The notes under the pieces: generated by a model
The model's input: the letters and a program-made list of their open reading frames with translations, nothing else
Database searches by the model: none
What the model was told of the DNA's origin: nothing
Made by a program: the position numbers and the translations under genes
Source: a virus
Taxonomy: Duplodnaviria; Caudoviricetes
Strand: one strand, 5' to 3'
IMG/VR virus record: IMGVR_UViG_3300030620_000005
Coordinates: 1 to 64,000 of that record
DNA: 64,000 bases
Shown: piece after piece, positions 58,353 to 63,052 of the stretch
Layout: each line of letters begins with the position of its first letter
How positions within the stretch are numbered: position 1 is the stretch's first letter

Positions 58353-60113
58353 TCACTGCGTCGCTATGGCCTGCGCCTCCCACGCCTCCGCTGGCAGGAT
58401 CCGCCACGTCTGGGTGTCGGCGCAGCGCTCCACTTCCGGGCCGAGCGCACGGGCCGCATCGAGGACCTGCTTCTCCGTGAGCCCGGTCGCGGCCTCCAGT
58501 TCGCGGCGTGTGCAGTTCCCGTACTTCGCCAGCGCGGCCCTCACCTTGTCCTGATTCGTCCCCCCGCTGACGGGCAGGACCAGCCGCTTCCCCACCGGGG
58601 CCTTCACCGTATCCGCGCCGATCCGGGCGACCTCCGCCGTGAACTCGTCCTTCGTCAGCCACATGCCCTTGTACGGGGCCGGCTGCTGGTGGTCCGGGGA
58701 CTGGAGGAGGAACTTTCCGGGCGCGTCGAGGTCGCCGGGTTCCCATCCGGGGGTGGTGCCGAAGATGAACCGGCGGTGGTCGCGGTCCGCCATGCGCGTG
58801 CTGATGCGGACGCTGTAGTTGCCGCGGGCGTCGGTGGTCCCGCCGAAGACTTTCCGGGACGGCTGCTGGGTGGCGGCGATCAGATGAATGCCCGCGAACC
58901 GGGCCAAAGCGAGCAGAGATTCCAGCTTCCTCGTTGCCGGATCCTTCTTCCACGGGCCGACATCGGCCTGCCGGACCAGCTCGCCCAGCTCGTCGAACAC
59001 CGCCCACAGTGCAGGCCGGCCGTGCTTGACCGGGTCCCACTCCTGGTCGCCAGCATCCGCGAGGATCTGTCCGCGCTCGCCGAGCTCCTGCTTCAGCCAG
59101 TCGAGGAAGGCGTGCGCCTGCTCCGGGGTCTGCGCGAGGTCTTGGAGGATCGGCAGCATCGGCGTCATCTCCGGCGCTCCCGGTTTGAGGTCGCAGCCGT
59201 AGACCACGATGTCCGGGCGGTCCGCGAGCTGGAGAACGATGGACCGAACCAGCGTGGACTTACCGAATTTACTGGACCCGGCTACGAGAGCATGCGCGTA
59301 GGCGAGGTCGATCCACACGGGGTTCAGGAACCGGTCGACGCCGAGAAGGACCGGGTCGCAGAACCGGCCGGCCGTCTGCCGCTGGTAGGGAATCACCGTG
59401 CTGAGCGGATCGCCGTCAATGAACTTCGCGATCAACTGGCTCGTCAGCGCCCCGTCCTCCAGGACGAACTCCCCGGCCACGCCGAGCCCGCCGGCCACCT
59501 TGGGCCAGGCGCCCCGGAGCTTCGTCCGGTCGAGAGTGACAGGCAGGTCCAGGACGGCCGTCCACCCTGTCCGGGTCCGCTCGACCGCGCATCCGGGCAG
59601 TTCAGCGCCGAACAGCTCGTGCATAACGGTCCTGATCCGGGTCTCCTCCACCGTCCGTCCGGACAGATCCGGACCTGTCCGGACGGGCTCCGGAGCCGTC
59701 ATCTTGGCGAGGTGCTGGAGCTTGATCTGCTGGCCGATGCGGGCGGTCTCCAGCCGTACCGACTCCTGCTCGACCTTCAGATCGTCGTGCCGGGTGTGGT
59801 GCCGGTACACCACCCGGCAGCCCGCCGCCGCGGCAACAGCGACGAGCCACGCGTAGACGCCGGCCGCTCCATCCAGCGCGCCGGTGGCCCACGCCTGCCC
59901 GAACGCCCCGGCCGCCGCGGTGGAGCCCCAGGCCAGGGCGGGCGGCCACTTCTTCGAGAACACAGTCCAGGCGAGACTCCCGGTCGCGATTGCGGCACCG
60001 AACTCGACCGCGGCGGCGGTGGTGCCGTACTGCCAGTCCGCGACCAGGGCGGTGGCGGAGACGAGGGTGGGCGCGGCGAGGGCGGCGGCCAAGTCGGTGC
60101 GGGTGAGCTTCAC
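58353..60113 (-). CDS. TraB-like FtsK/SpoIIIE DNA translocase
   Basis: N-terminal TMs; AGSSKFGKST, DLKPG, VFDELGEL, LARFAGIHLIAATQQP; C-terminal winged HTH. Confidence 0.88.
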   Translation of the reverse strand: MKLTRTDLAAALAAPTLVSATALVADWQYGTTAAAVEFGAAIATGSLAWTVFSKKWPPALAWGSTAAAGAFGQAWATGALDGAAGVYAWLVAVAAAAGCRVVYRHHTRHDDLKVEQESVRLETARIGQQIKLQHLAKMTAPEPVRTGPDLSGRTVEETRIRTVMHELFGAELPGCAVERTRTGWTAVLDLPVTLDRTKLRGAWPKVAGGLGVAGEFVLEDGALTSQLIAKFIDGDPLSTVIPYQRQTAGRFCDPVLLGVDRFLNPVWIDLAYAHALVAGSSKFGKSTLVRSIVLQLADRPDIVVYGCDLKPGAPEMTPMLPILQDLAQTPEQAHAFLDWLKQELGERGQILADAGDQEWDPVKHGRPALWAVFDELGELVRQADVGPWKKDPATRKLESLLALARFAGIHLIAATQQPSRKVFGGTTDARGNYSVRISTRMADRDHRRFIFGTTPGWEPGDLDAPGKFLLQSPDHQQPAPYKGMWLTKDEFTAEVARIGADTVKAPVGKRLVLPVSGGTNQDKVRAALAKYGNCTRRELEAATGLTEKQVLDAARALGPEVERCADTQTWRILPAEAWEAQAIATQ

Positions 60114-61166
60114 GGCGGCTCCGTAAACGGTGCGGCCCCCGCGGTCAGGCGGGGGCCAGGGCGGGCGGCTACAGGTACAGGCCAGTGCCGTCGTCCAGGC
60201 GATCGCGGGCTTCCTTCAGACGGCGGTACGCCGTCGACAGAGAGACCCCGAGGATCTCGGCGGCGCCCGTTTTGGTGATCTGCTCACCGCGGTGGACACG
60301 CCGTGCCAACTCGGTGATCTGCTCCTCGGCCTCGCCGCTCGGGGCCGGGTGAAACGGCAGGTCGGACTGTCCGGACGCAGTCGCGGATGACCGTCCGGAC
60401 GCGTACCTGAAGATCTCCGGAGACAGTTCGAACCACTCGGTGTTCCCGTTGCGGTACTGCGTGAACCGGGCATGCAGTGCCCGCTCCAACTCCGGTCCGC
60501 CGTGCAGGGCGAGGAGGACGCTGTCGCTGCGTAGTGCGAGCGCGCCCAGCCGGCTCTTCAGGTTCGTGGTGTACCCGATCTTCACCCGGCCGCCGTTGGC
60601 GATGAAGTAGACGACGCTGTCGTGGACGCCGCTCAACAGGCTCTCTACGGAAACCGGCATGGCGGAGGTGGTCAGTTCCTCGCGGGCGACGAGGCTGGTC
60701 GGCCCGCTGGTCAGGGCGGTCTCCAGCCCGCTGCGGAGCAGCTCGGGCACGACGGTGAGGGCGACCTCGATGCGGTGGGCGTGGCAGAGCGGGACCGGGC
60801 GCAGGGCGTCGGCCTCGCGGGTGCAGCGGCGTCCCTCGTCATCGGCGATGCAGTCGAGGGTGTCGGCTGGGGTGCTCACTGGTCCTCCAGAAGGGCTACA
60901 GGTACGTGTTGCCGAGGCGCTTGGCGGTGCGGCGGATGCTGTCGGCGTTGAGGTCCGGGCGCAGGCGGACGGCGGTCTTGACAAGGTCGTCGTTGCGGAC
61001 GCCGTGTCCGGCCAGCGTCCGGACGAGATCGGACGGCCCGGACGCCTCGTCCGCGATCTTCCGGAGTGGATCCGGACGGGTGTCCTCGCTGGTGATCGGC
61101 TGCGGTGCAGACGTCCCGAGGACAACGTCCGGAGAGGCGGACGGACGTCCGGACTTCTCGTCCGGA
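59658..61166. repeat. Cluster of at least 13 TCCGGA palindromes (often GTCCGGAC)
   Basis: 59658, 59668, 59678, 59689, 60370, 60394, 60416, 61018, 61060, 61071, 61128, 61148, 61161. Confidence 0.85.
60169..60879 (-). CDS. GIY-YIG/T5orf172-like domain protein with C-terminal HTH
   Basis: VVYFI...VKIGYTTNLKSRL...LERALHARF...EWF; AAEILGVSLSTAYRRL. Confidence 0.8.
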   Translation of the reverse strand: MSTPADTLDCIADDEGRRCTREADALRPVPLCHAHRIEVALTVVPELLRSGLETALTSGPTSLVAREELTTSAMPVSVESLLSGVHDSVVYFIANGGRVKIGYTTNLKSRLGALALRSDSVLLALHGGPELERALHARFTQYRNGNTEWFELSPEIFRYASGRSSATASGQSDLPFHPAPSGEAEEQITELARRVHRGEQITKTGAAEILGVSLSTAYRRLKEARDRLDDGTGLYL

Positions 61167-61819
61167 CTGTCCTGGACAACGGACGGGACATCCGGCCGAC
61201 GGGACTCCAGCGCCAGGCGCAGCTTCACTGTCCGGTCCTTCGTGAGGAGCCGGTCTCGTTCACCGAGCGCGAGGGCCTGTTCGGTGCCGGCCTGCTGCTG
61301 CAGGGTGCGCAGGTAGGCCTCGTACTTAGGGTCGAGCTTGATGCGGATGGTGTGCATGCCGATCGCCCACACGCCCTTGGCGGCGACGGAGACGAGCGCG
61401 CCGACGATGCCGACGAGGAGAGCGTCGTCGCGGTGGCCGTGCAGGACGATCGCGGCGACGGACACGGCGAGCATGGCGATGCCTGCTTTCCGTGGGAGTT
61501 CGGCGCGCTTGCTGTCGTAGCGCAGTAGCCATTCGGCGATGAGGCAGGCGGCCCATCCGGCGTCGAAGACTCCGGCGACGAGGTAGGCCGCCCAGCTGGG
61601 GGCGAGGAGGGTGAGCATGCTGCCGATGGCGACGGTGCCCCAGACGATGGCGCCGATGGTCATGAGGCAGGCGACGGCGAAGAGGCCGCGTCGGAGGGTG
61701 GCGTCGAGGTTGAAGGGGAGTCGGATGACGGGGGTGTTGTCGGGGATGTCGTAGGTGACGTCGACGCCGTGGACGGTCTCGGTGATGGGTCGGCTGGGGT
61801 GGCGGAACGGGGCGCGCAT
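60896..61819 (-). CDS. Spd-like multi-TM protein with coiled coil
   Basis: Four TM segments, coiled coil, repeat-rich linker; architecture typical of Streptomyces spread proteins. Confidence 0.6.
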   Translation of the reverse strand: MRAPFRHPSRPITETVHGVDVTYDIPDNTPVIRLPFNLDATLRRGLFAVACLMTIGAIVWGTVAIGSMLTLLAPSWAAYLVAGVFDAGWAACLIAEWLLRYDSKRAELPRKAGIAMLAVSVAAIVLHGHRDDALLVGIVGALVSVAAKGVWAIGMHTIRIKLDPKYEAYLRTLQQQAGTEQALALGERDRLLTKDRTVKLRLALESRRPDVPSVVQDSPDEKSGRPSASPDVVLGTSAPQPITSEDTRPDPLRKIADEASGPSDLVRTLAGHGVRNDDLVKTAVRLRPDLNADSIRRTAKRLGNTYL

Positions 61820-61848
61820 GGCGGGGCCTCCGGGGCGGGGGTCGGCGG

Positions 61849-62661: not shown

Positions 62662-62700
62662 GTTTTCATTGGCGAGCAGCGTGGGCTGCGCAGTACCGAC

Positions 62701-62720
62701 TGTACGGGATACCCCGTACA
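62701..62720. promoter_or_regulatory. Palindromic operator candidate
   Basis: TGTACGGG-ATAC-CCCGTACA between divergent genes. Confidence 0.65.
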
Positions 62721-62755
62721 CTGGCAACGCGGCCTGCCCACGGAAGGGACAGGGC

Positions 62756-63052
62756 ATGGAAGAGGAGGTGCAGCGCGTGTTCGACGCTCTCGCAGGTCTT
62801 GCCGACATCGAGGACCCGAAGGTACGCGCGCTCGCTGTGGCGAGGGTGCTCAAGGAGTGGCCCGACCACAGCAAGGCACTCCGCGAGATCAGGCGTCAGG
62901 CCGTACTCGAACTCCTCGCCCCGGAGGGAGCCACCTTCCGAGGAATCGCGAAGGAGTTGGGCGTGAAGCCGAGCACGTTGCAGGACATCGCTTCGGAGTA
63001 CTCGCGGTGGGCGAAGCGCCCGAAGAAGGACCCTGAACAGCAGGCCGAATGA
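62756..63052 (+). CDS. HTH regulator divergent from the transfer operon (Kor-like role)
   Basis: ATFRGIAKELGVKPSTLQDI. Confidence 0.75.
   Translation: MEEEVQRVFDALAGLADIEDPKVRALAVARVLKEWPDHSKALREIRRQAVLELLAPEGATFRGIAKELGVKPSTLQDIASEYSRWAKRPKKDPEQQAE

Follow-up and report, generated by a model that had tools for sequence, protein, structure and literature searches.

The minus-strand operon at positions 58353-63052 of the phage DNA described here is probably the phage's own TraB/Spd-type apparatus for translocating double-stranded DNA (dsDNA), and it may allow particle-free movement of the genome. The stretch analyzed, hereafter the window, comprises bases 1-64000 of the 72,095-bp linear IMG/VR record IMGVR_UViG_3300030620_000005 (Duplodnaviria; Caudoviricetes; CheckV completeness 77%). 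The operon faces a divergent helix-turn-helix (HTH) regulator and runs from two small open reading frames (ORFs) through a 79-amino acid (aa) membrane protein, an SpdB-like membrane protein and a MUG113/T5orf172-HTH protein to an FtsK/SpoIIIE ATPase, here called the pump (Table 1). Most likely, this ATPase is anchored in the membrane and pumps dsDNA of the phage itself in a sequence-specific manner. A first-pass annotation, made from the DNA letters, had described these genes as a plasmid-like transfer module with a palindrome between the divergent genes and phage genes on both sides, and each of these elements was recovered: every gene it described, the palindrome (TGTACGGGATACCCCGTACA), and flanking genes for a NUMOD4-HNH protein and then DnaB on the right and for portal, major capsid, tape measure, endolysin and RecT proteins on the left. 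Homology and synteny with TraB/Spd operons of Streptomyces plasmids were also borne out by the gene order of pSVH1 and by alignments with Tra and SpdB of pIJ101, and candidate cis repeats of the clt kind are present. Near relatives of the pump occur in genomes of S. ossamyceticus, S. yokosukanensis and other Streptomyces, and the host was therefore taken to be a Streptomyces.

The pump is an FtsK-type ATPase related to plasmid Tra proteins

The AlphaFold2 (AF2) model of the pump, built from 77 diverse homologues, had a mean predicted local distance difference test score (pLDDT) of 95. It featured four N-terminal helices (residues 5-29, 31-53, 58-79, and 82-139, the last forming a long stalk), a less confident linker (140-154), an alpha/beta domain (155-233), a RecA-type motor (255-500), and a C-terminal winged helix (520-586) consisting of three helices and a beta wing with pLDDT values above 90. 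Hydrophobic segments were found by hydropathy at residues 7-26 and 79-103, and the model gives the pump a predicted N-terminal membrane anchor. Among the 77 homologues, the Walker A/B residues G284, K285, and E375 were invariant and D374 was nearly so.

By both sequence and fold, the top matches among solved structures were the coupling protein TcpA of pCW3 and FtsK motor domains. TcpA (Clostridium perfringens, PDB 6o1w) is likewise an FtsK-family conjugation ATPase (E 2.5e-9 for sequence; Foldseek E 3e-19 for fold), and its solved chains of ~350-365 residues match pump residues 217-470 only, leaving the winged helix uncovered. In contrast to the window pump, TcpA works in the relaxase-dependent, multi-protein Tcp apparatus of a firmicute and has no clt-type repeats. 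A colinear alignment with pIJ101 Tra (KilA) began at Walker A and reached as far as the winged helix at the C-terminus (27% identity, E 1e-11). When the nearest cluster representatives at 50% identity were compared with family models, 57 of 77 matched plasmid_TraB (best E 8.5e-51), 32 matched FtsK, and 35 matched EccC.

A motor-domain tree was calculated from 88 domains by quick maximum likelihood (LG+G4, short search) and rooted on chromosomal-type FtsK; its unnamed rows had been picked as neighbors of the query. One clade, with a Shimodaira-Hasegawa-like approximate likelihood ratio test (SH-aLRT) support of 99, contained the query's group, Gilgamesh gp10, Mischief19 gp79, the pump of a ~130-kb Streptomyces plasmid, and every plasmid Tra reference, while chromosomal-type FtsK, mycobacteriophage Wanda gp196, and a Bacillus phage protein fell outside. 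Over the motor, Gilgamesh gp10 was 32% identical to the window pump and proteins of 130-kb Streptomyces plasmids 36%. Pumps with 32-36% identity to that of the window are encoded on five Streptomyces plasmids of 130-133 kb (NZ_CP122459.1, NZ_CP108441.1, NZ_CP070374.1, NZ_CP107821.1, and CP108533.1); they are sized like Gilgamesh (129 kb), whose gp10 lies in the clade of the one plasmid pump tested, and may be phage-plasmids.

Membrane partners and regulatory region of the operon

The 307-aa membrane protein resembles SpdB/SpdB2. It matched pIJ101 SpdB by BLASTP (E 2e-5) and by hhalign (probability 88%, E 2.9e-6, 108 columns), the alignment lying over helices 2-4, and did not match the DUF2637 protein that plasmid p7 encodes. 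Its AF2 model (mean pLDDT 66) showed helices at residues 38-69, 75-98, 103-130, and 134-162, a stalk helix (164-207), a disordered linker (208-248), and then a small helical C-terminal domain; hydropathy agrees with four predicted transmembrane helices. The gene lies in one operon with that of the pump, adjacent and on the same strand, and this pairing is kept in IMG/VR relatives that reach upstream of the pump. Homologues were also found on actinomycete plasmids of 7-12 kb, upstream of a large, mostly unannotated protein, and for two of these large proteins a weak match to P-loop ATPases was obtained. Other Streptomyces plasmids of small size have the gene for a DUF2637 protein after the FtsK-like gene.

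In all relatives examined whose locus reaches far enough upstream, the membrane protein ends in an HTH (...STAYRRL...). The window protein carries a divergent version of this C-terminal domain (...ADSIRRTAKRL...), and the gene next to it joins a GIY-YIG-related MUG113/T5orf172 domain to the canonical HTH type borne by the membrane protein of the relatives, which match only the last 45-80 residues of the MUG113-HTH protein. A search for further genomes with this arrangement returned the MUG113 domain alone, in unrelated contexts, so that it looks like a recent insertion in this genome.

The smaller genes of the operon are conserved to different degrees. The 56-aa ORF shows 100% identity to its counterpart in the relative L026 and 57-66% to those in L019 and L024, and the 79-aa membrane protein is kept in relatives at 48-99% identity. 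The divergent regulator is 100% identical in the relative genome G002 and 68-76% identical in L023 and L025. The palindrome between the divergent genes overlaps the -10 hexamer of the sole promoter-like minus-strand site for the operon, 62727-62699(-). All relatives having the HTH gene, namely L023, L025, and L026 (in G004 and G002), also have a GTACGGG-N4-CCCGTAC palindrome at a distance of ~37 bp from it; its retention beside the HTH gene fits a repressor-operator pair. In plasmids, losing the repressor is lethal through the action of the pump.

We also considered that the ATPase might serve phage DNA metabolism, i.e. replication, concatemer handling, or help in packaging, a role that has been put forward loosely for such genes in Streptomyces phages. 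The module is located between the early genes and the packaging genes, as such a role would suggest; however, N-terminal hydrophobic helices, integral-membrane operon partners, and homology to SpdB are not expected of a cytoplasmic replication factor, and the phage has its own terminase and DnaB, which makes a metabolic role very unlikely.

Repeats behind the pump gene co-vary with the winged helix

The non-coding ~100 nt just after the pump gene contain, read in the direction of that gene, three co-oriented GGGTCGG cores (58286, 58308, and 58320) and one inverted copy (58251), and we designate this region a candidate clt. It is the densest GGGTCGG cluster in the record, and none of 100 Markov simulations reached four copies in 120 nt. 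A perfect, terminator-like hairpin lies beyond the repeats and ends the operon.

The repeat core matched the third-helix sequence of the winged helix in 21 of 21 sequences. Winged helices of the class EKQVLDA[A/T]RAL are accompanied by the core GGGTCGG, those of the class DKQVRDAAGAL by GGGGTGGA, and those of the class ERQVLKAIEGL by GGGGACC. These classes are shuffled relative to the two motor-domain subfamilies, indicating that winged helix and repeats move together as a cassette. No such association with the repeat core was seen for the HTH of the membrane protein. Repeats and winged helix thus look as a TraB-clt pair would be expected to look, and on this sequence pattern they form a candidate pair.

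When the ATPase was examined with PADLOC, weak matches to mad8 and SspH were obtained (E 9e-16 to 3e-10), confined to the generic P-loop core, and a known defense system was ruled out on that account. The same matches could nevertheless hint at a prophage exclusion or defense device, a membrane FtsK-like ATPase that would keep out or eject the DNA of phages or plasmids entering the cell, and the FtsK-like gene of mycobacteriophage Wanda lies near a gene annotated as a superinfection immunity protein. We judge such a device quite improbable: besides the generic nature of the PADLOC hits, the repeats on the phage's own DNA co-vary with the DNA-reading domain of the pump, pointing to recognition of self DNA, and the synteny is with a plasmid transfer operon.

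A second word array lies within linker-coding DNA

A second array, made of the word GTCCGGA(C)/CGTCCGGA, lies inside the coding sequence of the module. The word occurs 33 times in the 72-kb record, and 17 of these copies fall within 59657-61167 (p about 1e-14). Each of its sub-clusters codes for a disordered linker: residues 143-152 of the pump, the linker of the MUG113-HTH protein, and the linker of the membrane protein. Relatives have arrays of TGRACCRG at equivalent places, with 11-13 of their 25-29 genome copies in the 2-3 kb around the module.

That the arrays simply result from repeated peptides was ruled out. Word counts were 5-12, compared with ~1-3 in synonymous-codon shuffles, and none of 300 shuffles reached the observed count in nine of ten pump genes; in addition, the word occurs on both strands via different peptides (PVQ versus VDQ, VNQ, or VDR). 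The codon-shuffle excess and the different peptides together indicate that the constraint acts on the DNA. The winged helix of the pump was rejected as the reader of GTCCGGA(C), given that relatives L012 and L026 have a near-identical winged helix yet carry TGAACCGG arrays. The sole DNA-binding domain that differs in the window is that of the SpdB-like protein, which is therefore proposed, from a single switch, as the array reader. Its C-terminal HTH-like domain probably reads the array, the candidate words being GTCCGGAC here and TGRACCRG in the relatives. A binding site within an spd gene has a precedent in SpdA and its palindrome sps (PMC4170104).

The module belongs to the phage

The pump is carried at 71-82% identity by 15 IMG/VR contigs. 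In those that extend far enough upstream, and where similarity can be detected, the membrane protein and the HTH precede it. Genome G001 (78.5 kb, direct terminal repeats, CheckV 100%) contains the module together with a tyrosine recombinase and with capsid, portal, tail, and sugar genes like those of the window. Genome G002 (59.4 kb, terminal repeats, 100%) carries the module and early genes near-identical to those of the window; its head differs, with another TerL and portal, a ClpP protease, and an HK97-type capsid. G003-G005 are proviruses, and relatives of this phage are proviruses or lie on Mb-size contigs. In Streptomyces sp. A012304, a prophage keeps the gene order of the window all the way from the early genes, across the module and the genes for head and tail, up to the lysis region. 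Genes of host type, for a WYL regulator and a rhamnogalacturonan lyase, start at ~44 kb of that contig and thus 32 kb away from the module.

Linkage of the module to a capsid and tail set, raised in the first-pass annotation, recurs in G001, in G002, and in the interior of the A012304 prophage. Its label 'AICE-type' (actinomycete integrative and conjugative element) did not stand. An AICE measures 9-24 kb, has its integrase and Rep next to the tra gene, and uses a GntR-type Kor/TraR repressor; here, the only tyrosine recombinase lies 45 kb off in the phage backbone, and neither Rep nor integrase is found beside the module. An adjacent element with its own integrase or Rep was looked for and not found; the module genes and their immediate neighbors gave no match to a replication-initiator family, and no serine recombinase was found. 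A separate adjacent element was rejected on the same grounds, on the module's presence in two complete genomes with terminal repeats, and on its position inside a colinear prophage. The module belongs to the phage itself, not to a neighboring AICE.

Whether the module is passive cargo, that is, a decaying plasmid or AICE fragment inserted in the phage or a separate neighboring element, was weighed against the same comparison. The MUG113/T5orf172 domain appears to have split the membrane-HTH gene by a recent insertion, in this genome only, and the phage genomes of the group are mosaic, as cargo might be expected to show. All frames are open, however, with host-like GC content at third codon positions (GC3, 0.84-0.94); dozens of relatives that differ in their backbones retain the pump at 71-90% identity; and the repeat arrays have been preserved, changing together. 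Together with the lack of Rep or integrase beside the module, this leaves cargo an extremely unlikely explanation.

The tyrosine recombinase (297 aa, XerC/D-like) has phage genes on both sides, so that the record is in an excised or vegetative arrangement and not an integrated one. It may be an integrase or a dimer resolvase. No homologue of it was found on the contig of the colinear A012304 prophage. Prevalence is low, with a close pump homologue in 2 of 401 sampled Streptomyces species genomes, and the 4.7-kb module showed no DNA similarity to isolated phages.

Comparison with known transfer systems

The window has the same gene order as the Streptomyces plasmid pSVH1, the order being compared through the description in the paper, where traR faces spdB3-spd79-spdB2-orf108-traB, expressed as one transcript (Thoma et al., 2015, PMC4447253). 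Shared features are a divergent repressor gene, a long operon, small proteins, a membrane protein of ~79 aa, a four-helix SpdB2-type protein, a small protein, and, last, a membrane-anchored FtsK-like pump with a C-terminal DNA-recognition domain and short repeats near its gene. The 79-aa membrane protein stands in place of Spd79 and is likened to it by position only. Whereas pSVH1 is a 12-kb rolling-circle plasmid with a GntR regulator, the window belongs to a tailed temperate phage with an HTH_23 regulator; its pump scores far under the curated TraB threshold, the SpdB-like protein of its lineage ends in a sequence-specific-looking HTH, and a second dense word array lies inside coding sequence. 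In pIJ101, whose Tra and SpdB both align with window proteins, tra precedes spdA and spdB, overall identity is low, and the window pump lies in another subclade.

In pSVH1, traB is needed for transfer, and spdB3, spd79, and spdB2 are needed for intramycelial spreading (PMC4447253). Since spreading by plasmid Spd proteins has been discussed as a stability function (PMC4447253; PMC4170104), the same machinery might have an internal job in the phage, distributing the genome over the compartments of the mycelium or moving phage DNA out of sporulation septa into spores, and serving stability or segregation with no transfer to other individuals. Neither the record nor four relatives contained a ParB-type partition gene (the domain looked for was ParB_N; ParA was not searched for), and the dense word array resembles a centromere-like site, both in keeping with an internal role. 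Nevertheless, plasmid traB alone is enough for primary intermycelial transfer (PMC4447253), and members of the family are integrated in chromosomes, where a prophage needs no segregation aid; we consider a purely internal role unlikely.

Spread of phage DNA from hypha to hypha is not a new idea. Thoma et al. (2015) proposed that SpdB2 homologues of actinophages assist the spreading of phage DNA (PMC4447253), and plasmid-phages that conjugate are recognized in Streptomyces (PMC4170104, PMC3583192). According to passages in PMC3583192, PMC4487206, and PMC4170104, pZL12/phiZL12 (Zhong et al., 2010; GQ919031) is a plasmid-phage with conjugal transfer and hence a laboratory precedent. Like pZL12, the window phage combines a virion gene set and transfer genes on one replicon, in this case as judged from genes alone. 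Unlike pZL12, an autonomous circular plasmid prophage with ParA/ParB and with different capsid genes, relatives of the window phage are integrated, and ParB was found neither here nor in four relatives. pZL12 was rejected as a homologue of the module: pZL12.20c is unrelated, similarity to the pump was undetectable, and a faint TraB-like match lies elsewhere (E 1e-6).

The nearest full-length relative of the capsid protein (52% identity) is encoded by pS1D4-14.2 (NZ_CP041606.1), a 98.8-kb linear plasmid-prophage with ParB and phage structural genes. It was rejected as a relative of the module: it is without this pump family and has a more canonical TraB-like gene (7457-9442, 283 bits on NF041214), and it looks like another phage-plasmid with a transfer pump. 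In Streptomyces phage papers, FtsK-like genes are routinely listed without function. In the records of isolated phages that were examined, the DUF2637/SpdB-like and FtsK-like genes were not found together: SF3 and TurkishDelight have only the membrane protein and Gilgamesh has only the pump, whereas the window has the whole operon. No description of a TraB-clt-SpdB operon in an integrating tailed phage, nor of the co-variation of its cassette, was found in the literature searched.

Proposed mechanism and its weight

We infer the following course for DNA binding, pumping, timing of expression, and biological outcome. The divergent HTH protein would bind the promoter palindrome and thereby control the operon. 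Once expressed, the pump would be placed in the hyphal membrane by its N-terminal helices, and its C-terminal winged helix would dock on the short repeats behind its own gene, a clt-like site. A hexameric FtsK-type motor could then drive circular or excised phage DNA across the membrane or a septal cross-wall, with the SpdB-like four-helix protein and the small membrane proteins acting as a partner channel, as they do when plasmids spread. The dense word array is probably recognized by the DNA-binding end of the SpdB-like protein, which would hold the DNA at the membrane. The phage genome would thus move without particles along the compartments of one mycelium, into a neighboring mycelium, or both.

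Several observations weigh against a TraB/Spd-type apparatus. The top family of the pump, NCBIfam NF041214 (plasmid_TraB), was matched with 33 bits against a cut-off of 800 and over residues 273-430 only, so that the pump is TraB-like but not a TraB equivalog. The expected grouping of the ATPase with plasmid Tra, apart from chromosomal FtsK, was recovered in the tree, but the classical pIJ101/pSGL1 Tra subclade excludes it. The similarity of the 307-aa protein to SpdB is weak though consistent, and its match to Pfam DUF2637 (E 2.4e-4, 21.5 bits) falls just under the gathering score of 22.8. The regulator has the position of Kor/TraR, under whose control the first-pass annotation had seen such systems, but it belongs to the family HTH_23 (PF13384) and not to GntR. 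GGGTCGG is not over-represented (34 copies in the record versus ~36 expected); because the word is this common, only its clustering and its co-variation are telling, and as the repeats adjoin the winged-helix coding region, plain linkage could explain part of that co-variation. Finally, the switch from TGRACCRG in the relatives to GTCCGGA(C) in the window was seen in one genome only.

On a wider scale, integrating temperate Streptomyces phages might pass their excised genome between hyphae as naked dsDNA by means of a TraB-clt cassette, a second, virion-independent route with two layers of recognition, i.e. an exchangeable winged-helix/repeat cassette and a membrane-anchored HTH that reads a word array; this generalization is offered tentatively. 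Should the module function as its plasmid counterparts do, a virus whose host is a multicellular bacterium would travel both as a particle and as pumped naked DNA, from hypha to hypha or from compartment to compartment. The boundary between phages and conjugative elements would be blurred, a prophage could escape receptor-based resistance, and the way in which a phage infection advances through a mycelium would be affected. The winged-helix/repeat cassettes provide three natural specificity classes, which makes the hypothesis directly testable in Streptomyces.

Other features of the record

Features of the window are collected in Table 1; the backbone genes were called by PHROG and Pfam searches. 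The GC content of the window is 65-71%, and the minus strand carries nearly all genes.

Table 1 Features of the operon and of the phage backbone in the window.
Feature	Position (strand)	Evidence or remark
Divergent regulator, 98 aa	62756-63052 (+)	PF13384 HTH_23, E 1.3e-6
Palindrome, 20 bp	62701-62720	Candidate operator of the divergent promoters
Hairpin, 13-15 bp stem	62627-62662	Predicted operon leader
First small ORF, 56 aa	62423-62593 (-)	No family match
Second small ORF, 61 aa	62179-62364 (-)	No family match
Hydrophobic membrane protein, 79 aa	61849-62088 (-)	Hydrophobic segment at residues 25-49; GC3 0.94
SpdB/SpdB2-like four-helix membrane protein, 307 aa	60896-61819 (-)	phrog_35187, E 1e-31
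MUG113/T5orf172 protein with C-terminal HTH	60169-60879 (-)	PF13455, E 2e-9; PF10544, E 5e-8; start codon uncertain
GTCCGGA(C)/CGTCCGGA array	59657-61167	Sub-clusters 59657-59684, 60369-60400, and 61017-61167
FtsK/SpoIIIE ATPase (pump)	58353-60113 (-)	PF01580, E 8e-13; phrog_1358, E 1e-31
Candidate clt	58245-58335	Non-coding; 3+1 short repeats
Terminator-like hairpin, 14-bp stem	58148-58189	Ends the operon
NUMOD4-HNH	63125-63775	Right neighbor of the module
Glycosyltransferase and nucleotide-sugar epimerase gene run	44200-50582 (-)	PHROG/Pfam
Portal	38026-39483	PHROG/Pfam
MuF/protease head polyprotein, 1130 aa	34611-38003 (-)	PHROG/Pfam
Major capsid protein	32633-34396	PHROG/Pfam
Tail fiber	29231-30241	PHROG/Pfam
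Tape measure	from 23928	PHROG/Pfam
Endolysin	17496-18383	PHROG/Pfam
Tyrosine recombinase, 297 aa	12359-13252 (+)	Phage_integrase with SAM-like N domain
RecT	6523-7581	PHROG/Pfam
PAPS reductase-like	2939-3748	PHROG/Pfam

In the head polyprotein, an N-terminal stretch matching an RNA-ligase PHROG is followed by MuF-like (portal-annotated) and protease parts. The glycosyltransferase/epimerase run sits between the small early/late ORFs and the packaging genes and is common to G001 and the A012304 prophage. Two DUF4352/phrog_806 proteins are encoded at 57506-58078 (-) and 51308-51949 (-); the first resembles a lipoprotein, comes directly after the operon of the pump, and lacks conservation among relatives. 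Beyond the window, the final 8 kb of the record contain small early genes and the DnaB helicase gene, all on the minus strand. At the extreme end of the record (71,940-72,050), upstream of these early genes, six GGTCCGGATTTCGGACC-like iterons are spaced 17-23 bp apart and may constitute an origin or operator array. A lone tRNA-Arg(CCG) gene lies among early genes at 4676-4756 (-).

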